IMG/VR virus record: IMGVR_UViG_3300042540_001084
Reading direction: 5' to 3' (one strand)
From: an uncultured virus (IMG/VR IMGVR_UViG_3300042540_001084)
Lineage: Duplodnaviria; Heunggongvirae; Uroviricota; Caudoviricetes
DNA length: 64,000 nt
Shown: piece after piece, positions 38,405 through 62,338 of the stretch
How positions within the stretch are numbered: the first letter of the stretch is position 1
How the letters are laid out: the number at the start of each line of letters is the position of its first letter
Notes under the pieces: generated by a model
What the model was told of the DNA's origin: nothing
What the model saw: the letters and a program-made list of their open reading frames with translations, nothing else
Databases searched by the model: none
Position numbers and translations under genes: made by a program

Positions 38405-38441
38405 TTTAAAAATATAAAAGGTTTTATTTTAAAAAAAAGAA

Positions 38442-40228: not shown

Positions 40229-40230
40229 AA

Positions 40231-41636: not shown

Positions 41637-41637
41637 T

Positions 41638-41979
41638 TTATTCAAATCCTTTATCTCTATTTAAGTTTATACCAATTGCTCTTTCACCTTCTTTATCAGG
41701 GTCCATATCATTTATTAGATATCTTGGACCTCTTTCGATACCCATAACCAATTGATTGTATTTTATATTATTATCTTTTAATTCAAATTCAGTGTGGCTT
41801 CTCAAATTTTCAGGTCTTGCGGTAGTTAAAACAATATGATGACCTTCATAAAACCATTCATTTAATTTTTCAGCAACTGATGTTATTACTTCAGGTTTTG
41901 TGACTGGTATATCAGTAAACTTTCTATACTTAAAAATTGTGCCATCTATGTCACAAAAATAGGTGTTAAATTTCTTCAT
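41638..41979 (-). CDS. Small capless HAD phosphatase
   Basis: FCDIDGTI, LTTAR, LIND. Confidence 0.7.
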   Translation of the reverse strand: MKKFNTYFCDIDGTIFKYRKFTDIPVTKPEVITSVAEKLNEWFYEGHHIVLTTARPENLRSHTEFELKDNNIKYNQLVMGIERGPRYLINDMDPDKEGERAIGINLNRDKGFE

Positions 41980-42425
41980 ATATCTAATTCATTAATAATG
42001 TAAACCAATGAACCTTCTGGTGATTCATCTGTTGTATCAACATCAACATAATTTTCAGTTGGTGCTTCGTAATCTGCGACGTGGTAATTTTCACGTCCTC
42101 TTTCCTCAGTTGTGTGTACATATAATTCTACCATATTTTCACCCATTCTTTCCTTAAAAGAATCTCGAACTTCTTTATATGGTGCAACAACACTAACAAC
42201 AACGTCAAATCCTTTGTGACTACAAAAATGTGCCAAGTTTTGTGCGAATGTTATGTTTTTAATTCTACCTTCCCTTGAATAGTCTTTATTCTGAAAGATT
42301 TCTCTAATGTCATCACCATCAATGTGAATGACATTTTTTTTGTAATTTGATTCTAAATAACCTTTTAAATGGTTAGATAAAACCGTTTTTCCGTGGCCTG
42401 GCTGGCCTGTAAACCAATAAATCAT
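41976..42425 (-). CDS. cysC: Adenylyl-sulfate kinase
   Basis: WFTGQPGHGKT, IDGDDIR, YSREGRIKNI, V.PY...R, YEAP. Confidence 0.85.
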   Translation of the reverse strand: MIYWFTGQPGHGKTVLSNHLKGYLESNYKKNVIHIDGDDIREIFQNKDYSREGRIKNITFAQNLAHFCSHKGFDVVVSVVAPYKEVRDSFKERMGENMVELYVHTTEERGRENYHVADYEAPTENYVDVDTTDESPEGSLVYIINELDI

Positions 42426-42428
42426 AAT

Positions 42429-43028
42429 TTAGTATTTGAATTTAAATAAATTTATATCATATTCATAAATCTCTGACACCTTACGTATCAAATCTTCAGT
42501 ATAATAATCTTTGTAATTGTTGCTTTTTCTATCACTAAAGTTTACCTTTTCTAAATCAGGAATTAACTTATTAAACTCCTCATCAGTTTCTAAAGTTTCG
42601 TGATAAAAAACTTTATCAACTAAAATATTTTTTTCATTATCAGATATCCACACATATTGAGGTGCCCAACCTTGATGTTTTAAAGACGACCTGTCTTCAT
42701 ACAACATATTAACACACTCCTCAAATGTTTTATCTTTCAATGTATGGTAATCGAAATGAGCCGCGCCAACATTCGTGTCACTTACGTGGTGCCAATAACT
42801 TTTTTCCATACGAGCATACTCATAATTGGAAACGACCCTATCCCAAGGATTTCTAATGACGGCAAATTTGAAATATTCGTCCCATTTTTTAGGTTCTTTA
42901 TTTTTAATTTCTTTTGCCGAATCGTGACCACCCATATAAAATCTTGCAATTTTACTATTAGTAATTGCAGTACCAGCGTTTTTTGGTATATGGACAAAAA
43001 TTGTTTTTAGGTTATCTGATATTGGCAT
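42429..43028 (-). CDS. Sulfotransferase family 2
   Basis: FVHIPKNAGT (5'-PSB) and RNPWDRVVS.Y (3'-PB). Confidence 0.85.
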   Translation of the reverse strand: MPISDNLKTIFVHIPKNAGTAITNSKIARFYMGGHDSAKEIKNKEPKKWDEYFKFAVIRNPWDRVVSNYEYARMEKSYWHHVSDTNVGAAHFDYHTLKDKTFEECVNMLYEDRSSLKHQGWAPQYVWISDNEKNILVDKVFYHETLETDEEFNKLIPDLEKVNFSDRKSNNYKDYYTEDLIRKVSEIYEYDINLFKFKY

Positions 43029-43031
43029 ATT

Positions 43032-45008: not shown

Positions 45009-45059
45009 ATTAATTTTTATACTAAAATAATAATTTTTTAGTAAAAATAAATAAGGACT

Positions 45060-46679
45060 TTAAACTACCGAATAAAGATATTCATCAATTACTTGTTTAG
45101 TAACATTTTCCGAATAGTATTTATCCACATCAGTTGGGGGTTCGTGATACTCAATATCCATTATATTCCCTTGAGCATCGACTTTATAAATCCAACCTGG
45201 TTTACCTGAAATCCAACCTTCAATAGTTGTTCTCCCTAATTGAATACCTGCAGTTTCTTTACACTTTGAAACATATTTCTCAACCGACCAAGTCGCAGGA
45301 TAATATTCTACGTGAGAGTGACTTTTTAATTCGTTTAAATAAATTGATTTATCTTCACCAACAACCACTAATTTCAAACCCCTTTCTTTAGTTTTCTCAA
45401 CTAAATCAAAAATTGTATTTTTTCTCAAATAATCTAAAGTACCGACAAACAGAACATAATCCTCACTTGTTGTCGATGATTTAAATTTTGTATTATCAAT
45501 TGGGTTGTAAATTACTTTAATTTTTTCCTCGTCGATTGAGTGTTCAGTAATCAAATAATCTTTAATTTCAGGTCTGATTGCAATGTATTTTTTAATAGAT
45601 TCGTGAACATATGGAATTTCCAAATCAATTACTTCAGAATGTATTGTGGATATTTTTGGTATGTTTGGATAAAGTCTACAAATATGTTCTGTGATTGGTT
45701 TGTGTTGAGTGTGAATTAAATCTACCATCAATTCTCCAACAGGGTATAGGACATTTGGTTGTGAAATTTCACCATTTTGAAAACTCCACTTTCCATCTCC
45801 TAATTTATAGCCCAAAGGTTCTCTAATTGAATAAACTTTGATACCATCTTTTTTTGCCATATCAGTTAAAGGACCACCAATTTCTGACATAACAGAAACA
45901 TCGTGTCCCATTTTCTTAAGTGACTTGGCTAATTGGTATACATAAAGTTCAGAACCTGTCAATGTTTTAAATGATAAACAAGTAAACAAAATCTTTAATT
46001 TTGTCTTAGGGTCTAATGCCAATTTTTGTGGTAGATGTTGATTGTATTTTTCCTCGAATTTTTTTCGATTTATCTCCCATTGTTCGTTAGTCATACCAAC
46101 TGATTTGTGAGTAATTCTTACGTTATACATAACACCAAGTTTTACACCACTTAAAAAGTTCTCAAAACAAAATGGAATATCGTAGAAGTGAAATCCCTCA
46201 AATTCTTCGACAAAGTTATGATTAATTCTATTCTTATGAACCACTAAAAAAACACCGTCAAGAACAACAACATCATCGATACCGTTTCCTAATGATGTGG
46301 AGTATTTTGATTCCCATTTTTTACCCCCACTTTCGTGATTAACAACACCATACATCTTTCTTCTGTCGGACCACCAAGTACCATTTTCACTCATAAATTT
46401 GGTACCAGCAACACCTAAAATTCCGTAATCTGTTTTTTCAAAATGTTTTAGTATTTTATGATACCATCCAGTACTATCAAAATAGATATCATCGTGACAA
46501 AAGATTACAATATCAGTTTCACTTTCATTTAAAATTTCATTATAAACTTGTGATAGTGATTTTTCACCATTATTAACTTTCTCAATAACCCTAACATTTT
46601 TGGCATAACCTGATGAGGTTTTTAAGTATTCAATAAACTCAGGTTTACTTTCTCGGGTAGAATATCCAATAGTAATCAT
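45060..46679 (-). CDS. Two-domain glycosyltransferase (GT-A + GT-B)
   Basis: FCHDD, GFHFYD; second half TGSELY...GHDV...GRTTIEG. Confidence 0.75.
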   Translation of the reverse strand: MITIGYSTRESKPEFIEYLKTSSGYAKNVRVIEKVNNGEKSLSQVYNEILNESETDIVIFCHDDIYFDSTGWYHKILKHFEKTDYGILGVAGTKFMSENGTWWSDRRKMYGVVNHESGGKKWESKYSTSLGNGIDDVVVLDGVFLVVHKNRINHNFVEEFEGFHFYDIPFCFENFLSGVKLGVMYNVRITHKSVGMTNEQWEINRKKFEEKYNQHLPQKLALDPKTKLKILFTCLSFKTLTGSELYVYQLAKSLKKMGHDVSVMSEIGGPLTDMAKKDGIKVYSIREPLGYKLGDGKWSFQNGEISQPNVLYPVGELMVDLIHTQHKPITEHICRLYPNIPKISTIHSEVIDLEIPYVHESIKKYIAIRPEIKDYLITEHSIDEEKIKVIYNPIDNTKFKSSTTSEDYVLFVGTLDYLRKNTIFDLVEKTKERGLKLVVVGEDKSIYLNELKSHSHVEYYPATWSVEKYVSKCKETAGIQLGRTTIEGWISGKPGWIYKVDAQGNIMDIEYHEPPTDVDKYYSENVTKQVIDEYLYSVV

Positions 46680-46689
46680 ATCTTATTTT

Positions 46690-47298
46690 TTAAATTCCTG
46701 TTGAACCAAATCCATTTGAACCACGTTCTTTATCCTCAAATTCATCTTCCACCAAAGAAACTTTTTTACCTGATTCTACAGGACATAAAACGCCTTGAGC
46801 AACCTTCTGTCCTTTTTCAACGGTAACCGCCATATTATTCATATTCATTAGAATAACTTTGACCTCACCTGTGTATCCTTGGTCTACAGTTCCAGGACTA
46901 TTCAAAACCATAAGTCCTTGTTTAATTGCCAACCCACTTTTAGTTCTTACTTGAATTTCAAAACCTTCAGGAATATCAAATGATAATCCTGTTGGAACTA
47001 ACTTACGTTCAAATGGTAAGAAATGGATTTCTTCTACACTGTGTAAATCAAAACCTGAATCGGTTTCATATGCGTACTTTGGGTCTACAGCATCTTCGTG
47101 TAGTTTTTTATAGAACAATGGTTTTTTTGTTAAGGCGTCCCCTAATAACTTTTCAAATTCGTCAAAAGGTAAACCTAAACGGGATTCAATTTCGGACATC
47201 AAATCCTCATCATCATTCTCGTCTTTAAAATTTTTAATTTCGTCGAAGAGTCTTTTAATCTCATCGTTTAATTCTGGGTCTGATTCAAAATCAATCAT
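46690..47298 (-). CDS. dut: Trimeric dUTPase with an acidic N-terminal extension
   Basis: SGFDL, KSGLA, GTVDQGYTGE, RGSNGFGSTG. Confidence 0.93.
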   Translation of the reverse strand: MIDFESDPELNDEIKRLFDEIKNFKDENDDEDLMSEIESRLGLPFDEFEKLLGDALTKKPLFYKKLHEDAVDPKYAYETDSGFDLHSVEEIHFLPFERKLVPTGLSFDIPEGFEIQVRTKSGLAIKQGLMVLNSPGTVDQGYTGEVKVILMNMNNMAVTVEKGQKVAQGVLCPVESGKKVSLVEDEFEDKERGSNGFGSTGI

Positions 47299-48014
47299 AT
47301 AAGTGCTTTTAATTTTTGAACAACATCAATTAATACCTGAACATCTCTTTCACAATATTCGGCAATTTCTTTTAACATACCTTTATTCCAATACGCGTCG
47401 TGAACCTTAGCCCCTGTAACCTCACCTTCTTTAGGAGATGGAACGTCCATACAGGTACACATAAGGTCCAAAGAACCAATTGCTGTGTATGCACCGTATT
47501 GCCAAATTTCTTTGGTGTCAATCGCTCTAATCTCCCAAGGTTTTGTGTCATAAGACGGTAAGATTGATGGTGGCATTAATCCGTTGATAATCATTCTTTT
47601 TGCCATCATAGGAATATCAAAGTTCTTAAGGTTATGTCCACACAACCAAAATTCTAATCTACCACAACGGTCAAGTAACTTTTGACAATCCACCAACAAG
47701 TGTTGTTCATTATCGTTGTGGAATGTTTGTTTCTTAATATCACCATTTTCCATAACAAACGCAACACTGATACAAACAATCTTTGCAAATTCAGGAACCA
47801 AAGCTGCTCGTGAAGAAAACACAAGATTTTTTTGTTCATCTTCGTTTTTACCAATCAGTTGGTCTTCAGGGAACCTTTTCAAAAACCAATCAAAATACTT
47901 ATCAAATTGTTCGGCAATTTTTGGGTATTCCTTTTTGCAATGGTCATAGTCTTTTGTTAGTCCGACAGTCTCAATGTCAAGAAAAAGAATTTTAGGTAAT
48001 GGAATCTTAATCAT
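47295..48014 (-). CDS. DEDD 3'-5' exonuclease (PolB-exo related)
   Basis: FLDIET, GHNLKNFDIP, YCERDV. Confidence 0.85.
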   Translation of the reverse strand: MIKIPLPKILFLDIETVGLTKDYDHCKKEYPKIAEQFDKYFDWFLKRFPEDQLIGKNEDEQKNLVFSSRAALVPEFAKIVCISVAFVMENGDIKKQTFHNDNEQHLLVDCQKLLDRCGRLEFWLCGHNLKNFDIPMMAKRMIINGLMPPSILPSYDTKPWEIRAIDTKEIWQYGAYTAIGSLDLMCTCMDVPSPKEGEVTGAKVHDAYWNKGMLKEIAEYCERDVQVLIDVVQKLKALI

Positions 48015-48015
48015 A

Positions 48016-49233
48016 TTATTTAATTAAACTTTTGTACAATTCTGCTCGGTCTTTAGTGACATTTTTCAAATCATATTTGTCTTTAACAGACTCATACAAT
48101 CTCTCACCCAAGTCAGTAGCAAAATTACGGTTTTTGATTAATTTCTCCAAATATTTAGCCCAATCGTGAGCGTTTGAGTATTCACTAACTAGTAGCGCGT
48201 TACCATCTGTAAACTTACCGTGTTTGTCTAATGAGTGTGTCAAATCAAGTGTGTAGGGACCCAAATCAGACGCCACAACAGCTTTTTTATAGAATCCCGC
48301 CTCAATAACTTTAAGTTGAGACTTCATTCTGTTAAACATATGGTTTTTGATTGGGGCCAATGAAACGTCCATCTTAGAATAATTTTTAGCATATGATGTA
48401 ACAGGAAGTGTCCAAACACGACGGTAACCCTCCCCTAAAAACTCAGGTTTTTCACCTTGTTCAAACTTCATCAAATGATTTTTAAAATCTTCTGAAACAA
48501 CTTTATAGTTTTGTGTAAAGATTTCTTCGTATCTAGCCCACACAGTTTCGTGAGGAAGAATTTGTCTTTTCTTCTGTTCACCTGTTTGACCGTTAATTTC
48601 AGTAATCGTACCTCTTGTGTCAAACCCACAAAGAACATATTGAACTTTATCTTTGAATTGGAGTAATTTATTAAATGAGTTGTCTAACAACTTCAAATCA
48701 CCCATATGTGATGAACCACCTAACCAACCAATTCTGAGTCTATCAGATTCGGGTGTTACTTCTTTGAATTGTGGTTCTTCGGGATTAACTGCGTTTGGTA
48801 ATACAAACACATTTTTATTAATCTTTTTAATTTCATCTGCGAATAAAGTGGTGGTTGTTGTTACGTATTGTGCCCCTTTAAGACTTTCAACAATTCTTTC
48901 ATTGATTTTATTATACATAATAACATCGTGAATTGGGTGGTCTTTGCTTGGCATCCAATAGTCATCGATATCACAAATTGTGATAACACCCATTTTATTT
49001 AGTTCCTCAACTAACTTTTTAGATGCATCAAAGTCTCCTGTGATACTTCTATGGAAATGTACAATTTGGAATTTCTTATAGAAATTCAAATCATTCATAG
49101 GTGGATTGTAATCAATCTCAACAAAAAAATCCTCGGGATATTGATTTTGAAGAAAAATGTGGGGGTCTAACGACCTGAATTTGCCAACACCTGAACGGTC
49201 AGATGGGACACATAAAACATTAATTTTTGACAT
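48016..49233 (-). CDS. GT-B glycosyltransferase
   Basis: DIDDYW, VLPNA, IGWLGGSSH, KSQLKVIEAG...ASD.GPY. Confidence 0.8.
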   Translation of the reverse strand: MSKINVLCVPSDRSGVGKFRSLDPHIFLQNQYPEDFFVEIDYNPPMNDLNFYKKFQIVHFHRSITGDFDASKKLVEELNKMGVITICDIDDYWMPSKDHPIHDVIMYNKINERIVESLKGAQYVTTTTTLFADEIKKINKNVFVLPNAVNPEEPQFKEVTPESDRLRIGWLGGSSHMGDLKLLDNSFNKLLQFKDKVQYVLCGFDTRGTITEINGQTGEQKKRQILPHETVWARYEEIFTQNYKVVSEDFKNHLMKFEQGEKPEFLGEGYRRVWTLPVTSYAKNYSKMDVSLAPIKNHMFNRMKSQLKVIEAGFYKKAVVASDLGPYTLDLTHSLDKHGKFTDGNALLVSEYSNAHDWAKYLEKLIKNRNFATDLGERLYESVKDKYDLKNVTKDRAELYKSLIK

Positions 49234-51815: not shown

Positions 51816-51866
51816 CAGTTTTTTTATCTATAAATACATCTAACCCGGGTATTTATCATATACACT

Positions 51867-53852
51867 ATGGCATATCAAAATATTAATCAATACAATTATC
51901 GTAGAATTGGATTACTACCGGTAAACCAAGTAACTGATTTTTGTTTAGCATCTGACGAAAAAGATTATAACCAAGAGGTTATCTTTTCACCATTTCTAAT
52001 CGCTGAAGATGATGGTAATAGAATGCCTTTGAAATTTGATTTCAATTCTACTGGAACAACAATTGCTCCTTTAAGAAACGAATTTTTATATGACACAATA
52101 GTTTCTGAAAATTATTACAACCCAAAAAACATTGACCCAAACTTTTGTGTTTGTGCGTCAACATTGTGTGACGTAGGACTTACAGGAATTGACAATGGTT
52201 TGACATTACAAATGTCAGGGGTTTCAATAGACATTACGACAGGACTGTACACAACAACCGCCGAAACATATAACAGATACAAGTACGATAGGAGATTTAA
52301 AATGCATCCAATTACTGGTAGTACAACTCCTTCAAACAGATTGTGGAATGACAACTCATATAACTATAATTTAAGTTGGTCTAATGCTGGCGGTCGTATC
52401 GGAACCGTGGCAACACTTAACGGAGGATTCTTCCAAGGGTTTTTTAAATTACAAGGATACGATTATGATACATTCCCTGTTAGAACTAATCAAGGTTGGA
52501 CCGCTGAGTTTTTATTAAAATACAGATGGACAGGTGATACAAGTGTCGGTATTAATAATAGATACCCAAATAACAAAGGTACCTTCTTCTATTTGGGGAC
52601 AAGAGCCGAAAATAAATTTTATCACTATCCTGACGGAAGTCCTGAAAGTGACACAGGATATACAAGAGTAACATCAGGTTTGACTTGTATGAAAACTTGT
52701 CTTTGTCACGAAACAGGTTACACAAATTCAAATCAGTGTATTCACGTTTATCAAATGTCAGGAGGAACATCCAAAAACTGTAGTTGTGGATGTGCTTGTC
52801 AGTGTGAGGTTAAAGCCGAATATCCTGAACTAGACCCGTTATATGACGGGGTTTCAAACGGTATGTCAGTTAGACTTAGCGGTGATACTGGTAACCCTAA
52901 AGTCTGTGTTAAAGAGTATCTAATAACGGGTTCTTGTGTTACAACGGGAACTTGTGAAACAGGAACAACATTTGTAACAGGAACCACGGTAATCGAGTGG
53001 TGTTCATCAAAAGGAATTTTTGATGGATGTACAGGAACAACATATCCAAATGTGGAACACTGGGTTCAAATTGATGTTGTGTTTAGAAGAAATGATTGGT
53101 TAGATTGTAAGGACCAATATTCTCTTGGTGGATTAGGACAATTGGTCACTGAGATTTATACCGCAACCACAGCAAACAATAGCGTCTCCCTAATTGAACC
53201 CCCAATTACACACAACCCTAAAGACGTTCCCGCAACAACGGATGTTGTTGAAATTAACGATTATTGGATTCAACAAAGAAAATACAGGTTAGGTAAACTT
53301 TATGTTTATGTTAACGGTAAACAATTTATGATTATCGATGATTTTGAAGAAATTGTTGCTCGACCATTAAACACATATAAAGAAAAACAAATTGGGGTTC
53401 CATACAACATTTCATTAGGTGGGGGAACTCAAGGATTAAAAGACAACTTAACTTTTTCGGGTGGATGTGCTCCGACATTGTCGGCAATTACATATCAACA
53501 AGACCCTGAGTGTTTGACTGATTATGATTTGGAACACACAATCTATTCAGGTTTAACAACTGAAATACATTTAGAAGAGATTTTTGGTGGTAGTTTCATT
53601 GGTGATATCAGTGCGTTTAGAATGTATACCGAACCTTTGGATGCGTCACAAATTAGACACAATTTTAGGTTACTAAAAAATAAGTATGATTTATTAGATA
53701 CTGATTGTATTGATTGTACTATTGTTATACCGGCAAATGACTTCTATTACATATCAATACCTGATAACGATTTAGGTTTCGTATTACTTCCGAATAATGA
53801 CCTGAATTATACATTATTACCAAATAACGATTTATCTTATGACATTTTATAA
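51867..53852 (+). CDS. Cys-rich probable virion protein with a LamG/concanavalin-like fold and C-terminal PxND repeats
   Basis: WT.EF..K, YVNGK, F.GDISAFRMY..PL.ASQI; four 10-aa repeats at the C-terminus. Confidence 0.6.
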   Translation: MAYQNINQYNYRRIGLLPVNQVTDFCLASDEKDYNQEVIFSPFLIAEDDGNRMPLKFDFNSTGTTIAPLRNEFLYDTIVSENYYNPKNIDPNFCVCASTLCDVGLTGIDNGLTLQMSGVSIDITTGLYTTTAETYNRYKYDRRFKMHPITGSTTPSNRLWNDNSYNYNLSWSNAGGRIGTVATLNGGFFQGFFKLQGYDYDTFPVRTNQGWTAEFLLKYRWTGDTSVGINNRYPNNKGTFFYLGTRAENKFYHYPDGSPESDTGYTRVTSGLTCMKTCLCHETGYTNSNQCIHVYQMSGGTSKNCSCGCACQCEVKAEYPELDPLYDGVSNGMSVRLSGDTGNPKVCVKEYLITGSCVTTGTCETGTTFVTGTTVIEWCSSKGIFDGCTGTTYPNVEHWVQIDVVFRRNDWLDCKDQYSLGGLGQLVTEIYTATTANNSVSLIEPPITHNPKDVPATTDVVEINDYWIQQRKYRLGKLYVYVNGKQFMIIDDFEEIVARPLNTYKEKQIGVPYNISLGGGTQGLKDNLTFSGGCAPTLSAITYQQDPECLTDYDLEHTIYSGLTTEIHLEEIFGGSFIGDISAFRMYTEPLDASQIRHNFRLLKNKYDLLDTDCIDCTIVIPANDFYYISIPDNDLGFVLLPNNDLNYTLLPNNDLSYDIL

Positions 53853-53883
53853 ATCTTATTTGGATTCAACTATTTATTAGAAT

Positions 53884-55791
53884 ATGGCAATTGGAATTAG
53901 AATTTTAAGTAATAATTTAAGTGGTCAAACCGCTGAAGTAACGTATCTACCTGCTTCGGGGGGTACAATAGATTTGGGTACGCAAGTAATACCATTTAAT
54001 TATATTTCATCATACTATTATGGTGTGTTTGAAATGTACATTCCAACATATGACTACACTTACACTTTAGAAGTTACGGTTCCACCAGTAAGCCCAACAC
54101 CTACGCCTACGGTAACTAGTACGAGTACGCCAACAATGACTGTTACACCAACAACAACACCTACTAATACAACAACTAATACGCCGACGCCAACAAATAC
54201 TGCAACTCAAACACCTACAAACACACAGACACCTACAAACACACAGACACCTACACCTACTCAAACACCAACGTCAACTTTAGGTTCAACCCCAACTCAA
54301 ACTCCAAGTAATACAAATACTCCGACACAAACTCCAACTAATACGGTAACAAATACGCCAACTAACACCGCAACAAATACGCCAACTAATACCGCAACAA
54401 ACACACCAACTAATACTGCGACAAATACGCCAACTAATACCGCAACAAACACACCAACTAATACTGCGACAAACACACCAACTAATACTGCGACAAACAC
54501 ACCAACATCTACACCAACTCAGACACCAACATCTACATTAGGTTCAACACCAACCCAAACACCAACTAATACAGAGACTCCAACACAAACTCCGACACAA
54601 ACACAAACTCCGACACAAACACAAACTCCGACACAAACACAAACACAAACTCCAACCCCAAGTGAACCACCAAGATATGCGTTCTCAGTTATCAAAGGTG
54701 GTACATATGATGAGGCTTGTGGTAATTATGGAACATCAACTACCATATATGGTATTGAAACTATATTCGACCAAAACAATTTCTTCTACAATTCTCCGTC
54801 AGGTCCAGTAACCGTTGATATGACAGGTTACTACCAACAATCTGCACAAGTTGTTGAGTTGGATTCATCAGGTAATGAAACAGGTGGGTATTCAATATGC
54901 GTAACACTTACACCTACACCTACCCAAACACCAACCCAAACTCAAACTCCAACTCAAACTCAGACTCCAACTAACACAGCAACAAATACACCTACCCAAA
55001 CTCAAACTCCGACTAATACCGCAACCAACACACCTACACCAACTCAAACTCCAACTCAGACTCAGACTCCAACAAACACAGCAACAAATACCCCAACTAA
55101 TACTGCAACAAATACACCAACTCAGACACCAACTAATACTGCAACTAACACTCCAACTAATACCGCAACAAATACACCTACTCAAACACCAACAAATACT
55201 CCAACAAATACCGCAACTCAAACACCAACAAACACTGCCACCAACACACCTACTCAGACACCAACTAATACTGCTAGTAATACGCCAACACCAACTCAAA
55301 CACCAACAAATACTGCAACAAATACACCAACCAATACCTCAACTCAAACTCCGACTCAAACTCCGACTAACACGGCAACACAAACACAGACACCAACTAA
55401 TACCGCAACACAGACACCAACAAACACGGCATCAAATACTCCAACACAAACCCCAACTAATACAACAACACAAACACAGACTCCAACACAAACACAGACT
55501 CCAACTAATACCGCAAGTCCAACACCAACAAATACAAATACACCGTCAGTAACACCTACTGACACACCTCAAGGGGCTAAAAAATATTTAGTACAAGATT
55601 GTTCTTCAGGATTTGTTGGTCAGTTTGGTATTTATGATACTTTACAGACGGGTAAAATCTATAAATTAGATGTAATTAATGATGGTGTTTCTTGTTACAC
55701 GATAATATCAACAACAACTGCAACAGTAACCACATTCGCAGACGTTATATCGGGTCCTTGGAATAATTGTATAACTTGTTTAAATAGTTAA
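53884..55791 (+). CDS. Thr/Pro-rich mucin-like modular protein
   Basis: Three small domains separated by long TPTNTATN/TPTQTQ linkers. Confidence 0.85.
   Translation: MAIGIRILSNNLSGQTAEVTYLPASGGTIDLGTQVIPFNYISSYYYGVFEMYIPTYDYTYTLEVTVPPVSPTPTPTVTSTSTPTMTVTPTTTPTNTTTNTPTPTNTATQTPTNTQTPTNTQTPTPTQTPTSTLGSTPTQTPSNTNTPTQTPTNTVTNTPTNTATNTPTNTATNTPTNTATNTPTNTATNTPTNTATNTPTNTATNTPTSTPTQTPTSTLGSTPTQTPTNTETPTQTPTQTQTPTQTQTPTQTQTQTPTPSEPPRYAFSVIKGGTYDEACGNYGTSTTIYGIETIFDQNNFFYNSPSGPVTVDMTGYYQQSAQVVELDSSGNETGGYSICVTLTPTPTQTPTQTQTPTQTQTPTNTATNTPTQTQTPTNTATNTPTPTQTPTQTQTPTNTATNTPTNTATNTPTQTPTNTATNTPTNTATNTPTQTPTNTPTNTATQTPTNTATNTPTQTPTNTASNTPTPTQTPTNTATNTPTNTSTQTPTQTPTNTATQTQTPTNTATQTPTNTASNTPTQTPTNTTTQTQTPTQTQTPTNTASPTPTNTNTPSVTPTDTPQGAKKYLVQDCSSGFVGQFGIYDTLQTGKIYKLDVINDGVSCYTIISTTTATVTTFADVISGPWNNCITCLNS
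54340..54660 (+). repeat. Coding tandem repeats (24-nt TPTNTATN units; 18-nt actccgacacaaacacaa x3)
   Basis: Visible direct repeats; plus strand strongly A/C-rich. Confidence 0.8.
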
Positions 55792-55800
55792 TAAAATATT

Positions 55801-56370
55801 ATGTCTTGTAAAAAATATACTTTAACAAACAACACCTCACAAGGTTTAACTTTTTCTTATCAAGAATGTTCCAACAATATGTGGGAATACGATATCTTAT
55901 TAACACCTGGTCAAGTTAGAAATATTTGGTTAGTTAACGGAACTTTTCAAGCGGCTTTAGAGGCACAATTCACAATCACTGAAGAAGTGTTTCCACCTAT
56001 TTCACCAACACCATCTCAGACTCCGACTAATACACCAACGCCATCAGTTACTCCAACGTTAACTCCTACTCCAACACAATCAGTAACACCAACACGTACA
56101 TCAACCCCGACTCCAACCCCAACACAAGTAGTGTTTGAATATTCTGATTTAGGGATTGATGATACTTTGTCGGTAAATGCTTGTAATAACTATCCACAGG
56201 GAAATGCACCAAGATATTCGACAAAACTATTTTCAAATTTGATTAATGGTGATATTGTTTATTTAAATTTTGCAATGACCTCAACAACTGAAGCATCATT
56301 CTATTCTGATGGGCATAATTATATCCAAACTAACGGGTCAGGAGTTATTATAGACACTGGCAGTTGTTAA
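55801..56370 (+). CDS. Short mucin-like modular protein
   Basis: N-domain nearly identical to that of 56410..57729, TP linker, Cys-bracketed C-domain. Confidence 0.85.
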   Translation: MSCKKYTLTNNTSQGLTFSYQECSNNMWEYDILLTPGQVRNIWLVNGTFQAALEAQFTITEEVFPPISPTPSQTPTNTPTPSVTPTLTPTPTQSVTPTRTSTPTPTPTQVVFEYSDLGIDDTLSVNACNNYPQGNAPRYSTKLFSNLINGDIVYLNFAMTSTTEASFYSDGHNYIQTNGSGVIIDTGSC

Positions 56371-56409
56371 TAACATATTGATGATATTTAATAATAAAGA
56401 ACTACTAAA

Positions 56410-57729
56410 ATGGCTTGTAAAAAATACATACTAACTAATAACACAGCTCAGGGATTAACTTTCTCTTATCAAGAGTGTTCCAACAATATGTGGGAATACG
56501 ATATCTTATTAACACCTGGTCAAGTACGAAATATTTGGTTGGTTAATGGTACGTTTCAAGCTGCTTTATCAGCACAATTTACTATTGTTGAGGAGACATT
56601 CCCTCCTATTTCACCAACACCATCTCAAACTGCGACTAATACTCCAACACCAACTAATACAAGAACCCCAACTCCAACACCGTCTATCACCGCAACTAAT
56701 ACTCAAACCCCAACTAATACTCAAACCAAAACGCCTACACCAACACCAACAAATACTGTAACTAATACACCAACAAATACTGTAACTAACACACCAAGTA
56801 ATACCCAAACACAAACACCAACTAATACCGCAACAAATACACCAACTCAGACACCGACTAATACTATAACAAATACATCAACTCAAACACAAACACCAAC
56901 AAATACTCAAACAGGTACACCAACGCAAACACCTACAAATACACAAACACCAACTAACACTCCGACTAGTACCCAAACTCAAACCCCGACTAATACTCCA
57001 ACCAACACATCATCTAACACACCAACACCAACTATTACTCAAACACCAACAAACACCGCAACTAATACTCAAACACCAACTCCAACACCATCAACAACTG
57101 AACCTGCTAGATTCCAATTTGCCGTGAATTTCGCAAATAATGCCCTTGATGCTTGTGGTAATTACGGTACGTCTATTGAGATATATGGTATAAATCAATT
57201 CTTTGACCAAAATATTTTCTTCTATGATTCTCCTTCAGGACCTGTAACAACTGATATGTCAGGTTTCTATCAGAATTCGGGTCAAGTTGTTGAGTTAGAT
57301 TCTGCAGGTTATGAATTAAATGGATTCTCAATATGTCCAACATTAACACCAACACCAACACAAACAGCAACTAACACACCAACACCAACTAATACTCAAA
57401 CACCAACTAATACCGCAACTAATACTCCAACTAATACTCAAACACCAACTAACACAGGAACAAGTACACCAACACCAACACCAACAAGAAATAATTATGT
57501 TTACTCGTTATCATCAGGCTCAACCGCTAACTTAGCTTGTGCGGCTAGTCCTATTACAGTTTATGGTTCGGTATCAGGTGGTGTAGGACCAAACTTAGGT
57601 GAGACATTATATCAAACAATTGACCCATTATCAAACCCTGTAGGAGTTGCATATTGGTCTAACGGTACCGCTTGGTACAGAACAGATTCTTCAGGAGTTA
57701 TTGTTCAGACAGACCCTAACGGATGTTAA
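56410..57729 (+). CDS. Thr/Pro-rich mucin-like modular protein
   Basis: Shared N-domain, two TP linkers, two Cys-bracketed domains. Confidence 0.85.
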   Translation: MACKKYILTNNTAQGLTFSYQECSNNMWEYDILLTPGQVRNIWLVNGTFQAALSAQFTIVEETFPPISPTPSQTATNTPTPTNTRTPTPTPSITATNTQTPTNTQTKTPTPTPTNTVTNTPTNTVTNTPSNTQTQTPTNTATNTPTQTPTNTITNTSTQTQTPTNTQTGTPTQTPTNTQTPTNTPTSTQTQTPTNTPTNTSSNTPTPTITQTPTNTATNTQTPTPTPSTTEPARFQFAVNFANNALDACGNYGTSIEIYGINQFFDQNIFFYDSPSGPVTTDMSGFYQNSGQVVELDSAGYELNGFSICPTLTPTPTQTATNTPTPTNTQTPTNTATNTPTNTQTPTNTGTSTPTPTPTRNNYVYSLSSGSTANLACAASPITVYGSVSGGVGPNLGETLYQTIDPLSNPVGVAYWSNGTAWYRTDSSGVIVQTDPNGC

Positions 57730-57757
57730 TTCAAATTATTTAAAACAACTTTCATAT

Positions 57758-57790
57758 AAACCCTCCACTTTATTGGAGGGTTTTTTATTT
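57758..57790 (+). terminator. Intrinsic terminator
   Basis: aaaccctcca-ctttat-tggagggttt followed by a T-run. Confidence 0.8.
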
Positions 57791-57806
57791 TTTAAAAAAA
57801 AGTGTA

Positions 57807-59054
57807 ATGAAAATTTTTGTTCAAATTGCGTCCTATAGAGACCCACAACTCGTTCCAACAATTAAGAATATGTTGGAAAATGCTAAAAAACCAAAAAATA
57901 TTAGATTTGGTATTGCAAGACAATTTCACCCCGATGATAAATTTGACAGTTTAGAAGAATTTGAAGGGGATAAAAGATTCAGAGTTTTAGATATTCCACA
58001 CGAAGAATCTAAAGGCGTTTGTTGGGCTAGAAACTTAACACAACAACTTTATGAGGGTGAAGAATATACCCTACAAATTGACTCACATATGAGGTTCGCA
58101 CCTAATTGGGATGACGAGATGATTAAGATGATTAAACAACTTCAAAAGAAAGGTCATAAAAAACCTTTATTAACAGGATATGTTTCATCATTTGACCCTG
58201 AAAACGACCCTGCAGGTAGAGTTCAAGACCCTTGGAGAATGGTTTTTGATAGATTTATTCCTGAAGGTGCGGTATTTTTCTTACCTGAAACAATTCCTGG
58301 TTGGCAAGATTTAAAAGAACCAATCCCCGCAAGATTCTATTCTGCACACTATTGTTTTACATTAGGTGAATTCTCAAACGAGGTACAACACAATCCCGAA
58401 TATTACTTCCACGGAGAAGAAATTTCAATCGCCGCAAGAGCATATACTTGGGGTTATGATTTGTTTCACCCACATAAAACATTAATTTGGCACGAGTATA
58501 CTCGTAAAGGAAGAACAAAACAATGGGATGATGACAAAGAATGGGTTAATAAAAATAATCACTCACACTTAACAAATAGAAAGTTGTTTGGTATGGACGG
58601 TGAAACTCAAGAAGGTCACGATGGTCCTTATGGCTTTGGTACCGTTAGAAGTTTAAGAGATTATGAAAAATATGCGGGTCTTTTATTTGAAAAAAGAGCT
58701 GTTCAGCAATACACAATTGATAAAAAATATCCGCCAAATCCATACAATTATGAGTCTGAAGATGATTGGAAAGCCGATTTCGCACAAGTATTCAAACACT
58801 GTATTGATATTGGTTATTCTTCAGTACCTGAAAAAGATTATGATTTTTGGGTGGTTGCGTTCCACAATGAAAATGATGAAACAATCTTTAGAAAAGACGC
58901 TGATAAAAATGAAATTACTTCAATGTTAAGAGACCCTGATGGATATTGTAAAGTATGGAGAGAATTCCAAACAGCAGAAAAACCTAAATATTGGGTTGTA
59001 TGGCCTCACTCAGAATCTAAGGGTTGGTGTGATAGATTAACAGGAAATCTTTAA
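57807..59054 (+). CDS. GT60-like polypeptide alpha-GlcNAc transferase (Gnt1/OGNT type)
   Basis: IFVQIASYRD, GVCWAR, Y.LQIDSHMRF...WD, FHGEEI..AAR.YT.GYD.F.P...WH.Y. Confidence 0.8.
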   Translation: MKIFVQIASYRDPQLVPTIKNMLENAKKPKNIRFGIARQFHPDDKFDSLEEFEGDKRFRVLDIPHEESKGVCWARNLTQQLYEGEEYTLQIDSHMRFAPNWDDEMIKMIKQLQKKGHKKPLLTGYVSSFDPENDPAGRVQDPWRMVFDRFIPEGAVFFLPETIPGWQDLKEPIPARFYSAHYCFTLGEFSNEVQHNPEYYFHGEEISIAARAYTWGYDLFHPHKTLIWHEYTRKGRTKQWDDDKEWVNKNNHSHLTNRKLFGMDGETQEGHDGPYGFGTVRSLRDYEKYAGLLFEKRAVQQYTIDKKYPPNPYNYESEDDWKADFAQVFKHCIDIGYSSVPEKDYDFWVVAFHNENDETIFRKDADKNEITSMLRDPDGYCKVWREFQTAEKPKYWVVWPHSESKGWCDRLTGNL

Positions 59055-59057
59055 AAA

Positions 59058-59795
59058 ATGAAGTTCAATACAATACCAAAATTTGTAGTAAATCTTGAAA
59101 GAAGACCTGATAGATTAGAATCCATTAAAAAAGAAATGGAATATCTTGAATGGGATTTTGAGTTATTCAAGGCGGTTGATACTAATAGCCACGTGGGTTG
59201 TACACTTTCCCACACGGCTATTTTAAAAATTGCGAAAGAAAGAGGATATAAAGAAGTTCTTATTATTGAAGATGATTGTGTTGTTATGCCGTATGCAAAA
59301 TCTTTATTAAAAGCAATCGAAGATGAGTGTCAAAGTCTTGAATACGCAGTTTTTAACTTGGCACCAACTTTAAATAGATATGTTAATAGGAGCGAAAAAC
59401 ACCCACTATTAAATGATATTACTAATCTACCACCAGCGTCTCCTGAACACAGAGGTATTTTTGCAACAAATATGATATTGTATCACGAATCATCATATGA
59501 TGATGTTATTTCCATAGAAGAAGATGAACGTAGAAGATTTTACGCAGTGGATGATTACATATATCAAAAAGTATATTTAAAAAAACAAAGTTATTGCCCA
59601 ATTCTACCCATAGCACCACAAATTACTAATGACTGGTCAGACGTTTCACAACAAATGTGTAATAATTTTTACGGTCAAACATACAATTGGAACCTTTATA
59701 GTGAGGTAAAAATACCTAATGAGTTTATGAATAACGTAAACAATAAAACAATGAAAAAAGAAAACATTCATAAAGAATATTATTATGTCAGTTAA
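59058..59795 (+). CDS. Glycosyltransferase family 25
   Basis: VNLERRPDR, F.AVD, GCTLSH, LIIEDD. Confidence 0.85.
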   Translation: MKFNTIPKFVVNLERRPDRLESIKKEMEYLEWDFELFKAVDTNSHVGCTLSHTAILKIAKERGYKEVLIIEDDCVVMPYAKSLLKAIEDECQSLEYAVFNLAPTLNRYVNRSEKHPLLNDITNLPPASPEHRGIFATNMILYHESSYDDVISIEEDERRRFYAVDDYIYQKVYLKKQSYCPILPIAPQITNDWSDVSQQMCNNFYGQTYNWNLYSEVKIPNEFMNNVNNKTMKKENIHKEYYYVS

Positions 59796-60666
59796 ATTTA
59801 TAACCTGTATTTACGGTGACCTATATGGGACTGAGTTAGGCGGTAGACCATCAAGATTTGGTCATTACTTAAATTCACTTCTCTCACTATTAAAAATGAC
59901 CGATGCTGATTTTGTGTGTTATACCTCAACAAGAGAAATTGATAGATTAAAAAATTTCTTTTATGTTGAAAATGGTATATCTGAAGATAAATTAAAATTT
60001 GAGTTGTCTAACTTAAGAACCACAAGATATGAAACACTACTTCAAAAGTATAAAAACTATGAAGACGCTAAAAAAAGTGATAGATGTTTTGAAATACAAT
60101 ATCAAAAGTTTAGTTGGTGGTGGAACGAAGATAAAACATACGATTATTATTATTGGATTGATGCTGGTTTATCACATAGCGGATTAATACCGAACAAATA
60201 CCTTACGGTAGAAAACGGTCCAAGAAAGTTTTATGAGTCATCGTTATTTAATAATGATTTTTTAAAAAATGTTGTAGAATTTTCAGGAGATAAATTCTTT
60301 TTGATTGGTAAAGATAATGATAGAAATTTTTGGTCTCAAACAGTTGACCCAAAATGGTATACCAATTATGATAGAACAATTCATATTATTGGTGGTATGT
60401 TCGGTGGTAAACGAGAATTATGGGAGACATTAGTACCTATGTTTGAGAATTACGCTGACAAGATTATTGAAGAGGATAAAAGACCTTTTCCTGAAGAATT
60501 GTTTATGACACTAATGTTTTACAACCATTCAGAATATTTTGTTAGAAAACATTTTGATACTTGGTGGTGTAGAGATAACGCTCCAAGAGAAACCCCTGAC
60601 AGTTACTTTGTTGAAAACAAAAGTTTCTATAAAATTTTAGAAGAATTAAATAAAATCGATGAGTAA
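59785..60666 (+). CDS. HtrL/WlaTC-like glycosyltransferase
   Basis: YYWIDAG, IIGGMFGG, EE.FM. Confidence 0.65.
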   Translation: MSVKFITCIYGDLYGTELGGRPSRFGHYLNSLLSLLKMTDADFVCYTSTREIDRLKNFFYVENGISEDKLKFELSNLRTTRYETLLQKYKNYEDAKKSDRCFEIQYQKFSWWWNEDKTYDYYYWIDAGLSHSGLIPNKYLTVENGPRKFYESSLFNNDFLKNVVEFSGDKFFLIGKDNDRNFWSQTVDPKWYTNYDRTIHIIGGMFGGKRELWETLVPMFENYADKIIEEDKRPFPEELFMTLMFYNHSEYFVRKHFDTWWCRDNAPRETPDSYFVENKSFYKILEELNKIDE

Positions 60667-62338
60667 AATTACATTTGTAACCGGACTTTGGAATATTAAA
60701 CGTGACTCTTTGACTGAAGGATGGTCAAGGTCGTTTGACCATTATCTACAAAAGTTCTCGGAACTTTTAAGACAAGACACTAACTTTATTATTTTTGGTG
60801 ATAAAGAACTTGAAGAATTCGTATTTTCACAACCAAATAGAAATAATGAAAATACCCAATTTATTGTAAGACCTCAAGAATGGTTTAAAAATGATTTTTA
60901 TGAAATCATTCAGTCTATAAGAACAAACCCTGAATGGTATAGTCAATCGGGATGGCTGCCAGAATCAACTCAAGCAAAACTTGATATGTATAACCCTCTT
61001 GTTATGTCAAAAATGTTTGTATTGCACGATGCAAAAATATTTGACAAATTTGACTCCACACATTTGTTTTGGATTGATGCAGGTATTACAAATACGGTTC
61101 ATCCTGGATATTTTACACACGATAAAATTCAAGAAAAATTCGATAAGGTATTTCCAAGATTTGGGTTTGTGGCGTTCCCATATGACGCTGAAAATGAAAT
61201 TCACGGATTCAAATACCCAACGATTAATGATTACGCAGGACAAGATGTAAAACTTGTTTGTAGAGGAGGTTTGTTTGGTGGATTAAAAAGTATGATAACA
61301 GACGTTAATAGTCTTTATTATAGTGTTTTAAGTGAGACTTTAGGTAGAGGTTTAATGGGCACTGAAGAATCTTTATTCAGTATTATGTTATACAGACACA
61401 ACGATATGTTTGATTACCACGAAATTGATGGTAACGGACTTATCTCTAAGTTTTGTGAAGATGTTAAAAATGATACCTATAAAGTTAAAAATATTTCAGG
61501 TAAACAGTCTTATAGTGATTTAGATTATGATAACACCTCACTCTATGTAATTACATTCAATAGTCCTAATCAATTTAAAACATTGATTAAGTCTATGGAG
61601 TTATATGATGAAAATTTCTTAACAAAACCTAAAAAGAAATATCTTTTAGATAATTCAAGTGACTTGTCAACTACCGAGGAATACTCGGAACTTTGTAAGT
61701 TATACGAGTTTGAACACATTAAAAAAGATAACTTAGGTATCTGTGGTGGTAGACAATTTATCGCTGAACACGCACAAGAAAATGGTTTTGATTTTTATTG
61801 GTTCTTTGAAGACGATATGTTCTTCTATGATGGTAAAGATACTGTTTGTAGAAATGGGTTCATTAGAAATATTCAGGACCTATACAATAAGTCTATGAAG
61901 ATTACCCGAGAAAACTCATTAGACTTTTTGAAACTAAATTATTCTGAGTTTTTTGGGGACAATGGAGTTCAATGGTCTTGGTATAATGTTCCTCAAACAG
62001 TTAGAGAAAAGTTTTGGCCTGAAAAACCAAACCTACCTGTTCAAGGATTAGACCCTAATGCGCCAAGAACTAAATTTGATGCAGTATATTCATATCAAGG
62101 ATTACCTTATGGTATTGGTGAAGTTTATTATTGTAACTGGCCACAAGTTGTTACAAGATATGGAAACGAGAAAATGTTCTTAACAACAAAGTGGGACCGT
62201 CCTTTTGAACAAACTTGGATGAGTTACATTTTCCAAGAAACTAAAAAGGGTAATATCAAGTCGGCATTGTTATTTGCAACCCCAACTGAGCACGATAGAT
62301 TTGAACATTATGACAGAAGCTTGAGAAAAGAGTCTTAA
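60659..62338 (+). CDS. HtrL/WlaTC-like domain fused to a GT-A domain
   Basis: TFVTGLW.I.R, FWIDAG, GGLFGG, GTEE; second domain LDNS, N.GICGGR, FFEDD. Confidence 0.65.
   Translation: MSKITFVTGLWNIKRDSLTEGWSRSFDHYLQKFSELLRQDTNFIIFGDKELEEFVFSQPNRNNENTQFIVRPQEWFKNDFYEIIQSIRTNPEWYSQSGWLPESTQAKLDMYNPLVMSKMFVLHDAKIFDKFDSTHLFWIDAGITNTVHPGYFTHDKIQEKFDKVFPRFGFVAFPYDAENEIHGFKYPTINDYAGQDVKLVCRGGLFGGLKSMITDVNSLYYSVLSETLGRGLMGTEESLFSIMLYRHNDMFDYHEIDGNGLISKFCEDVKNDTYKVKNISGKQSYSDLDYDNTSLYVITFNSPNQFKTLIKSMELYDENFLTKPKKKYLLDNSSDLSTTEEYSELCKLYEFEHIKKDNLGICGGRQFIAEHAQENGFDFYWFFEDDMFFYDGKDTVCRNGFIRNIQDLYNKSMKITRENSLDFLKLNYSEFFGDNGVQWSWYNVPQTVREKFWPEKPNLPVQGLDPNAPRTKFDAVYSYQGLPYGIGEVYYCNWPQVVTRYGNEKMFLTTKWDRPFEQTWMSYIFQETKKGNIKSALLFATPTEHDRFEHYDRSLRKES

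Follow-up and report, generated by a model that had tools for sequence, protein, structure and literature searches.

A GT60-family glycosyltransferase encoded beside Thr/Pro-linker proteins in a T4-like jumbo phage: a candidate cytoplasmic mucin-type O-glycosylation system

The 64,000-nucleotide stretch analyzed here (the window) corresponds to bases 64791-128790, read on the minus strand, of a 141,693-bp IMG/VR virus record (IMGVR_UViG_3300042540_001084) with a completeness rating of 47%. The record belongs to a T4-like myovirus of lake origin, with the terminase, portal, prohead protease and major head protein genes inside the window, and the sheath, gp19-like tube, gp25-like and Baseplate_J genes in the record outside it. 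A relative, G001, has a capsid protein 82% identical to that of this phage and measures 294,914 bp at 98% completeness, which indicates that the present phage is a jumbo phage. The locus under study lies at positions 53884-62338, where seven genes on the + strand encode three proteins with Thr/Pro-rich (TP) linkers, a GT60-family glycosyltransferase (GT) and three further known or putative GTs. A preliminary description of this DNA had proposed that the phage primes and extends glycans on its own linkers, and the gene coordinates were as first given there. The last four genes (57807-62338) abut or overlap and form a tight GT block. No match to the 8.4-kb region was found by megablast among 50,697 phage records.

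The three TP genes encode mosaics of small Cys-containing modules. TP635 (635 aa, 53884-55791, + strand) consists of an N-terminal module, a 212-residue (T-X)n linker, a middle module, a 231-residue linker and a C-terminal module with four Cys residues. TP189 (189 aa, 55801-56370, +) has a 60-residue TP linker between an N-terminal and a C-terminal module, and in TP439 (439 aa, 56410-57729, +) two linkers, 178 and 68 residues long, separate three modules. These results agreed with the small domains and T/P/N/Q repeats described before, with linkers of 60 to 231 residues, the longest being 212 and 231. A fourth TP-linker protein of the window (557 aa, 8105-9778, +) is encoded upstream of the terminase/portal/head block. 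The linkers of the four proteins, 1039 residues together, contain 43% T, 18% P, 10% N and 7% Q. Thr occupies alternate positions in 74-93% of cases, and the intervening residue is P, N, Q or A. The modules are shared among the proteins: the N-terminal modules of TP189 and TP439 are 91% identical, the middle modules of TP439 and TP635 are 63% identical, and the C-terminal module of TP635 is 42% identical to a module of the 557-aa protein. TP635, TP189 and TP439 matched no Pfam family. The maximum 19-residue Kyte-Doolittle mean in the three proteins was at most 1.16, and such lack of a hydrophobic stretch bears out the earlier remark that signal peptides are absent and speaks equally against a membrane anchor. 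The three consecutive genes of the preliminary description were all confirmed, but the whole record contains nine open reading frames (ORFs) with TP tracts. These include a SprB-repeat protein adjoining a 1891-aa collagen-repeat protein, a 2194-aa protein of the tail region and two LamG-domain proteins, and TP proteins of the record are also encoded in the tail and fibre region. By the ORF scan, the capsid gene (21185-22990) and the gp19-like tube gene were not among the nine. All three TP proteins of the locus are candidate substrates of the GT block.

The first gene of this block (57807-59054, +) encodes a 415-aa protein that was earlier called GT60-like because of its IASYRD, QIDSH and GEE motifs, which are found at residues 7-12, 90-94 and 203-205. 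The protein matched PF11397 'GlcNAc', the Pfam family equal to GT60, with E 1.5e-66 and 225.7 bits against a cut-off of 21, covering profile positions 2-44 and 97-351 in two stretches, and it matched phrog_24687 with E 1e-166. As judged by these profile matches, the protein is a true GT60 member. In a 57-sequence alignment with relatives 32-87% identical, D92, H94 and H229 were invariant, and D92-S-H94 together with H229 presumably bind the metal. No membrane span was found in this enzyme or in the rest of the GT block, indicating that they are soluble.

An AlphaFold2 model of the 415-aa protein (predicted local distance difference test, pLDDT, 96.0; predicted template modelling score 0.91) comprised a GT-A catalytic domain (about 1-325) and a small beta-rich C-terminal domain (about 325-415). 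The best Foldseek matches in the PDB, with E from 3e-10, were the polypeptide N-acetylgalactosamine (GalNAc)-transferases (ppGalNAc-Ts) of family GT27: GalNAc-T4, -T2, -T1, -T10 and -T12, Drosophila PGANT9 and Toxoplasma GalNAc-T3. In the VIA-align ranking, the top 29 PDB entries were all ppGalNAc-Ts (Z 19.0-22.2, 260-305 residues aligned), with a root-mean-square deviation of 3.2-3.8 for 28 of them and 7.5 for the entry at rank 29 (5nqa_A), and the next class was generic GT2-type enzymes with Z of at most 17.9. Since phmmer and profile searches of the protein against PDB sequences gave nothing meaningful, the link to GT27 is one of structure comparison. According to the parts of PMC7185993 drawn on here, GT27 and GT60 both have DxH in place of DxD and are retaining enzymes that share polypeptide Ser/Thr O-glycosylation. 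The same parts describe GT60 as confined to prokaryotes and protists, being a protist polypeptide N-acetylglucosamine (GlcNAc)-transferase family with uncharacterized prokaryotic members. The nearest folds and the genomic association with TP repeats described below point indirectly to protein as the probable acceptor class of the 415-aa enzyme.

The GT60 gene is followed by three genes for proposed extension enzymes. The first (59058-59795, +; 245 aa) encodes a GT25-family protein, as had been predicted, matching PF01755 with E 4.1e-15 and 56.6 bits against a cut-off of 24. The next two had both been called HtrL-like. For the 559-aa protein (60659-62338, +) this held for the N-terminal half, of which residues 3-253 passed the cut-off of PF09612 (E 7.4e-11, 42.6 bits, cut-off 24.1), but the 293-aa protein (59785-60666, +) had no Pfam match and is HtrL/YibB-like only by language-model (Atlas) features, with 23 of its 30 nearest clusters in the HtrL_YibB set (score 0.97), and by BLASTP, which paired it weakly with the 559-aa protein (E 0.002). 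The AlphaFold2 model of the 559-aa protein (pLDDT 89.6) showed a two-domain GT with a GT-A-like C-terminal half. Its best Foldseek matches were LH3, mimivirus R699, LARGE1, the chondroitin polymerase K4CP and COLGALT1 (E 7.5e-11 to 1e-8), with low template modelling scores because of domain orientation; it also resembles heparosan synthase, a two-domain GT. E384-D385-D386 was invariant in 29 sequences.

We also analyzed the regulatory signals of the locus. The heptamer TATTTAT occurs 58 times in the record on both strands, and was present within 40 nt upstream of 31 of 122 record ORFs, compared with 0.8 expected from its density. It precedes the portal, prohead protease, gp25-like baseplate and collagen-repeat genes, as well as the genes of TP635, of a 661-aa protein encoded just before it, and of the 557-, 737- and 525-aa TP proteins. 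Examples are found at 53871-53877 (+; 7 nt before the ATG of TP635), in the 51848-51854 region, and upstream of 8105, 15269, 18588, 19638 and 62357. Its presence before portal, protease, baseplate, fibre and TP genes makes TATTTAT a candidate for a late-type promoter element in this lineage of phages. A late motif had been reported at two of the three TP genes; it is exact for 53884 (and for the gene at 51867), but has one mismatch at 56410 and is missing at 55801. The T4 late motif TATAAATA occurred only 10 times in the window, once at 51829, and a scan for sigma-70-type promoters gave 44 sites versus 48.1 in shuffled sequences, with no excess. The terminator reported at 57758 was recovered as a strong intrinsic-terminator-like hairpin at 57758-57783 (+), with a 10-pair stem including 5 G-C pairs, a 6-nt loop and a T-run tail (TTTATTTTTT). 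Furthermore, three freshwater metatranscriptome runs from three studies contained contig pieces of 150-417 bases, mostly 99% identical, of the TP439, GT60, GT25 and HtrL-like genes; contigs assembled from RNA libraries may stem from DNA and do not allow genes to be ranked, and nothing is concluded from them on expression or on the terminator.

Relatives of the GT60 protein were then collected. A total of 554 IMG/VR stretches encode one, the best 80 being 77-100% identical. The word-indexed protein search returned 7,345 proteins at E of at most 0.001 among 7,999 candidates, and the exhaustive search of cluster representatives returned 4,563 at this threshold and 892 at E of at most 1e-30. Among bacterial contigs (one genome per species), at least 591 stretches encode a relative. 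Among the 50,697 deposited phages, four encode GT60, namely Xanthomonas phages XacN1 and Xoo-sp13 and Stenotrophomonas phages CM1 and RAS14, with 45-48% identity. The most constant partner of GT60 is the 559-aa two-domain GT, which is 39% identical over its full length in these four phages. Homologues of the 293-aa protein adjoin GT60 in XacN1 (31% identity), RAS14 (26%) and Gemmatimonadota loci, and in all three places the GT60, 293-aa and 559-aa homologues are neighbours. GT25 gave a tblastn match in roughly half of 80 related loci (an approximate count) and none in the XacN1 or RAS14 loci. Among 30 GT60 relatives picked for their length, and thus not a random sample, four were fused to HtrL_YibB, seven to a 2-oxoglutarate (2OG)-Fe(II) oxygenase domain and one (P0146) to a SPASM domain. 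Some proteins were giants of 1300-2500 aa in which two to four GT60 domains are combined with AhpC/TSA and 2OG-oxygenase domains (P0123, P0124, P0126, P0134, P0141, P0153 and P0178).

The TP proteins accompany GT60 in these viruses. Among related IMG/VR loci with at least 3 kb of upstream sequence, GT60 was preceded in 52 of 53 by a same-strand TP-rich ORF whose end lay no more than 5 kb away; these loci are closely related to one another and include several duplicates, with about 35 distinct arrangements by eye. The TP modules of this window were found by tblastn in a minority of the related loci, and the modules of the upstream ORFs mostly differ, suggesting that the position upstream of GT60 holds a fast-changing set of TP-stalked proteins. 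Sequence coding for TPTxTPT was counted 84 times in this record, 51 times in XacN1, 22 times in RAS14 and 51 times in Xoo-sp13, versus 0 in each of the four nearest capsid relatives that lack GT60, LR756508 (484 kb), Microcystis phage Mel-JY01 (190 kb), a Flavobacterium phage (160 kb) and S-RIM2 (175 kb). The reversed pattern, used as a control, gave 0 in all eight phage genomes. Of the ten PF11397-positive records among the 25 TP-tract viral records considered below, four in which a capsid gene was identified belong to this lineage (capsid 76-88% identical), and another, G004, with a capsid of only 31% identity, represents a third lineage besides this one and the XacN1 group.

XacN1 is the relative with data on the virion. 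Its ORF334 is the GT60 homologue (48% identity), followed by a carbamoyltransferase gene and then by the 293-aa and 559-aa homologues. Of 13 XacN1 ORFs examined, 12 have TP tracts of at least 40 residues, and four adjoin tail sheath genes. According to PMC5852040 (text and legend of Supplementary Fig. S4), purified XacN1 virions hold at least two Schiff-stained glycoproteins, and its authors suggested that these are made by the two phage GTs ORF328 and ORF334. The numbers of the XacN1 TP ORFs do not occur in the main text of that paper.

To see the association outside phages, bacterial GT60 loci were analyzed. A crude ORF scan of 79 such loci found many with adjacent TP-rich ORFs, and inspection of these led to real proteins. 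When 32 whole GT60-bearing bacterial genomes were searched for TPTxTPTxTPT, 13 had a match. In six of them, with genomes of 2.8-6 Mb, the matches were concentrated within the 17-kb GT60 locus: Ralstonia (52 of 53 matches), Achromobacter (39/39), Paraherbaspirillum (12/12), an Acidimicrobiaceae metagenome-assembled genome (MAG; 2/2), a Gemmatimonadaceae MAG (1/1) and Luminiphilus (1/1). Since a 17-kb locus is 0.3-0.6% of each genome, these six coincidences are far beyond chance. The three Burkholderiales cases are probably one ancestral arrangement, which leaves about four independent cases. Across three lineages of phages and several phyla of bacteria, the association of GT60 genes with proteins that contain Thr/Pro repeats was non-random.

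The neighbourhoods of the bacterial genes, with Pfam annotation for five loci, were as follows. In Ralstonia (L318), GT60 lies in a type VI secretion system (T6SS) cluster with Pfam matches to TssE/F/G/A, PAAR and TagF, adjoining a VgrG with a long C-terminal (TP)n tail. The same combination of GT60 and a T6SS VgrG with a (Thr-Pro)n tail was observed in Achromobacter (L312) and Paraherbaspirillum (L296). Almost every TP tract of the genome sits in the VgrG tail, which raises the possibility that T6SS spikes are glycosylated. In Sphingomonas, GT60 is located in an extracellular contractile injection system (eCIS) cluster, directly after the gene of a 1171-aa baseplate-like protein with PT-rich linkers. 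In four Sphingomonas/Novosphingobium loci (L307, L325, L328 and L334), the GT60 start overlaps the gene of a PT-linker protein of about 1200 aa with an Rv2525c-like glycoside-hydrolase-like domain, and these clusters also contain an eCIS core domain and a tape-measure gene of contractile injection systems.

Other neighbourhoods contained PqqD-type domains. In Gemmatimonadaceae, the gene order is a PqqD-domain protein with a TP tail, GT60 and a 559-aa-type GT. Luminiphilus carries GT60 twice, along with genes for a 559-aa-type GT, for a PqqD protein and for a small TP protein whose N-terminus is of the twin-arginine type. PqqD-type domains, which resemble the recognition element of ribosomally synthesized and post-translationally modified peptides, were seen fused to TP tails or beside GT60 in Gemmatimonadota (L290, L292 and L300) and Luminiphilus (L329). 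The domain content at these loci, with the SPASM fusion mentioned above, hints that the transferase may be recruited in the style of a leader peptide. Small proteins with a twin-arginine-type N-terminus and long TP/SP repeats were found beside GT60 in L336, L353, L329, L339, L280 and L281; such proteins could be glycosylated in the cytoplasm and then exported folded.

Taken together, phage-encoded cytoplasmic mucin-type O-glycosylation of the phage's own stalk proteins appears to be the probable function of the locus. Since GT60 and TP proteins are paired again in other phages and in the injection machines of bacteria, the phage most likely puts sugar on proteins of its own particle. The family, fold and solubility of the enzyme, the gene order and the genomic association with TP tracts are what the data show, whereas the acceptor, the sugar, the order of action, the location in the virion and the benefit are what we infer in the following scheme. 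The 415-aa GT60 would act as a retaining, soluble GT-A transferase, with DxH as its metal site and UDP-activated N-acetylhexosamine of the host, most likely UDP-GlcNAc, as its donor. It would place the first sugar on hydroxyls of the (Thr-X)n linkers in the three proteins encoded just upstream and in at least six more in the genome. The 559-aa two-domain GT, as the constant partner, would extend the chains, and so would the variable partners, which are the 293-aa HtrL-like protein, GT25 and further GTs encoded elsewhere. The outcome would be virion fibre or decoration proteins with stiff stalks that are covered in glycan and resist proteases. For TP635, TP189 and TP439, a place in the virion is suggested by the shared promoter-like motif and by analogy.

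Several findings weigh against this reading. At the locus itself, the terminator-like hairpin parts the TP genes from the GT block, which lacks a TATTTAT motif. The motif is also found upstream of a DnaB-like helicase gene and a SOD-like gene, which lowers its value for placing the TP proteins in the virion, and tblastn of TP439 and the 661-aa protein against the 50,697 phage records gave no match, so that the modules are orphans and homology does not place the TP proteins in the virion. HtrL/YibB and GT25 are families named after lipopolysaccharide (LPS) loci in their Pfam descriptions, and the Gemmatimonadaceae GT60 locus has polysaccharide genes (Bac_transf and GT4) nearby. Among viruses, the phage lineages with GT60 and TP tracts are few. 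The co-occurrence of GT60 with TP-rich genes across phages, which had been put forward as a check, came out clearly in one direction (TP tracts in 4/4 GT60 phages versus 0/4 lacking GT60), but not in the other: TPTxTPTxTPT was present in 25 viral records of 40 kb or more, of which 10 have PF11397 and 15 do not, and of the five that are at least 90% complete, one has it and four do not. Thus TP stalks exist without GT60 and do not need this enzyme; the four complete viruses have no related capsid gene. In bacteria, 19 of the 32 GT60-bearing genomes had no TPTxTPTxTPT match anywhere, and in 7 of the 13 genomes with matches none was placed in the GT60 locus: Cupriavidus OV096 (0/1), Acidobacteriaceae (0/8), Lewinellaceae (0/2), Sphingomonas (0/1), C. 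campinensis (0/4), P. tuberum (0/3) and Verrucomicrobium (0/1, where the contig number of the match could not be paired with the GT60 contig). Finally, no glycan, glycopeptide or enzyme assay for this phage or for any prokaryotic or viral GT60 was found in open-access papers and bioRxiv, the literature covered here.

An alternative is a system with the same enzymes and substrates in which the acceptor is hydroxyproline, with a prolyl 4-hydroxylase acting first on the T-P tracts and GT60 then adding GlcNAc, as on Skp1 in protists. One characterized GT60 member acts on hydroxyproline, the seven oxygenase fusions among the 30 long relatives carry PF13640 or PF13661 domains in the same polypeptide, and the nearly complete relative G001 has two PF13640 genes, one of them fused to a GT2-like domain. 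We regard this route as unlikely, since no PF13640 gene was found in the 141-kb record, XacN1, RAS14 or Xoo-sp13, all of which have the enzyme trio and the tracts, and none was seen in the T6SS, eCIS and Gemmatimonadaceae loci scanned. Furthermore, it is Thr that recurs invariantly at alternate linker positions (74-93%), whereas Pro is one of several residues at the other position, and the G001 oxygenase is fused to GT2 rather than GT60 and may serve the collagen-repeat protein.

It is about equally improbable that GT60 glycosylates another protein of the phage or host that is not TP-rich, with the TP linkers being plain flexible spacers. The four complete TP-repeat viruses lacking GT60 and the 19 GT60 bacteria lacking the stringent tract are what such a target would predict, and one characterized family member has a single non-mucin target. 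This explanation leaves unaccounted for the six genomes that concentrate their TP tracts at the GT60 locus and the 4/4 versus 0/4 presence of tracts in the phages.

A slightly weaker alternative is that the GT block remodels an envelope glycan of the host (LPS, capsule or surface glycoprotein), for example against superinfection, and that its adjacency to the TP genes is conserved synteny only. The family names of GT25 and HtrL/YibB, the position of the block 3' of the terminator without the late-type motif, the many other sugar genes in the window and the Bac_transf and GT4 genes in Gemmatimonadaceae would all suit such a role. However, all the enzymes are soluble with no membrane span, the nearest folds of GT60 are polypeptide transferases, the TP association holds in bacteria, where phage synteny cannot explain it, and XacN1 virions themselves stain for glycoprotein; we therefore think this role improbable. 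Glycosylation of hypermodified bases in phage DNA, as in T4, is very unlikely: the GT block adjoins a DNA polymerase gene here and in XacN1, and the C-terminal half of the 559-aa protein gave sub-threshold matches to a TET-associated GT (PF20691; 20.6 bits, below the cut-off of 27.5) and phrog_842, a beta-glucosyl-hydroxymethylcytosine alpha-glucosyltransferase (E 1.4e-5), but neither this record nor G001 has a thymidylate-synthase/hydroxymethylase gene (PF00303), a search run without a positive control gave no TET/JBP match, and the fold and family of GT60 point to polypeptides.

Returning to O-glycosylation of the TP stalks, a broader and more speculative proposal, tentative at best, is that GT60 and the 559-aa-type GT constitute a widespread, so far undescribed prokaryotic and viral cytoplasmic 'mucin' pathway for Thr/Pro stalks, in which the two-domain partner might be a LARGE1- or K4CP-like bifunctional polymerase building a repeating disaccharide on the primed threonines. 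Within the same tentative proposal, the targets might be contractile-injection machinery (myovirus fibres and decorations, T6SS VgrG tails and eCIS baseplate proteins) and exported stalk proteins such as the twin-arginine-type TP proteins. If so, phage particles and bacterial spikes would carry a true glycocalyx that shapes adsorption, stability and recognition.

The candidate system was compared with known ones. The characterized GT60 enzymes of protists (Dictyostelium Gnt1 acting on Skp1 hydroxyproline, a Dictyostelium mucin-type enzyme and Trypanosoma cruzi OGNT) share with the 415-aa protein the Pfam family, DxH in place of DxD and the conserved distal His. The phage enzyme is soluble like the cytoplasmic Gnt1, and its candidate acceptors are Thr/Pro-rich like protist mucins; it differs in being phage-encoded, in its extra beta-rich C-terminal domain (about 325-415), in its HtrL-type and two-domain partners, and in candidate acceptors that are virion-type modular proteins. 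GT27, the family of animal and Toxoplasma mucin-type initiators, provides the closest solved structures and the same metal-site motif, but sequence identity is only 10-14%, and the phage protein is not a GT27 member, has no identified ricin-type lectin domain and would be cytoplasmic rather than of the Golgi. In the GtfA/GtfB system of Gram-positive bacteria, a soluble GT loads GlcNAc on the long Ser/Thr repeats of serine-rich repeat adhesins in the cytoplasm and further GTs extend it. Both systems would prime long repeats while the protein is still in the cytoplasm, whereas those enzymes are GT4-type with a GT-B fold and act on bacterial adhesins exported by SecA2/Y2 instead of phage proteins.

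XacN1 shares with this phage the GT60 homologue, the 293-aa and 559-aa partners and many TP-linker ORFs, with the differences that a carbamoyltransferase is inserted in its block, that GT25 is missing and that its host is a proteobacterium. The parts of PMC5852040 drawn on here name neither the family nor acceptor tracts nor the stained proteins. In mycobacteriophages, structural proteins of the phage are glycosylated by GTs that the phage itself encodes (Freeman et al. 2023, Cell Host Microbe, as cited in PMC12619734), with glycans on the C-terminal ends of capsid and tail-tube subunits (as cited in PMC12619734); here the capsid and tube genes are not TP-rich, and the initiating family would be GT60. 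PMC12619734 also describes 'moraphage', an aquatic large-phage lineage with core GTs that may or may not be the present one. Protist GT60 activity, mycobacteriophage virion glycosylation and XacN1 virion staining are already known. In the literature covered, nothing assigned a phage enzyme to GT60, named TP linkers as acceptors or linked GT60 with T6SS or eCIS proteins.

Mucin-type O-glycosylation is seen as a trait of eukaryotes, and phage particles are mostly treated as bare protein. If the proposed function is correct, an abundant group of freshwater jumbo phages (554 IMG/VR stretches, more than 7,000 protein clusters) would build glycan-covered stalks in the bacterial cytoplasm with its own enzymes, with bearing on host recognition, particle stability, grazing and immune recognition. 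It would also give a function to the large uncharacterized prokaryotic GT60 branch (4,563 representative clusters, at least 591 bacterial-genome matches) and raise the idea of glycosylated T6SS spikes and eCIS baseplates. Furthermore, the enzymes could serve the production of mucin-like glycoproteins in bacteria.

The host of the phage may belong to the Bacteroidota. This is suggested by the SprB-repeat protein encoded in the record, by a Flavobacterium phage among the nearest cultured capsid relatives, and by the GT60 homologues nearest to the 415-aa protein, which come from Saprospiraceae-labelled contigs among the bacterial stretches.

Other features of the window were also examined. The gene directly upstream of the TP genes (51867-53852, +) encodes the 661-aa Cys-rich protein mentioned above, with TATTTAT within 40 nt upstream and no Pfam or PHROG match. 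In many of the 80 related loci, a homologue of 45-77% identity is encoded ahead of GT60, in some cases within a TP-rich ORF, so that in relatives the homologue is fused to TP linkers. By Atlas features it fell near Laminin_G_3 clusters with low shared counts (114-133), a weak lead to a ConA/LamG-like lectin fold. A sugar-gene island with PHROG and NCBIfam matches on the - strand (35036-49233) may feed or extend the glycan. It comprises a nucleotide-sugar epimerase (35036-36016), HAD/cytidylyltransferase/kinase-like genes (38442-42425), a sulfotransferase-like gene (42429-43028), GT2-like (43032-45008) and GT4-like (45060-46679) genes and a further GT (48016-49233), with a dUTPase (46690-47298) and a 3'-5' exonuclease (47295-48014) inside the span. 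With these genes the phage may produce an unusual, possibly sulfated, glycan.

In addition, several large proteins were noted in this record and its relatives. The gene of the 1891-aa collagen-repeat protein is located at G000:C1:3-5675 (-), and in G001 a prolyl-hydroxylase-like 2OG oxygenase and a GT2-like domain are fused in one 620-aa protein (L107, 280-2142, -), whose gene adjoins another GT2. The fusion and the collagen-repeat protein recall virus-encoded collagen hydroxylation and glycosylation, as in mimivirus. In XacN1 (AP018399, 203370-213311) and Xoo-sp13 (MN047793, 207672-217409), the GT block has a giant ORF of about 3300 aa within a few kb of it, and the XacN1 copy contains a TPTPTPT stretch at 212811-212836. 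The major head protein of this phage (601 aa, 21185-22990, +) matched T4-type capsid proteins in two pieces covering only 53-62% of its length, suggesting that it has a large insertion or an extra domain.

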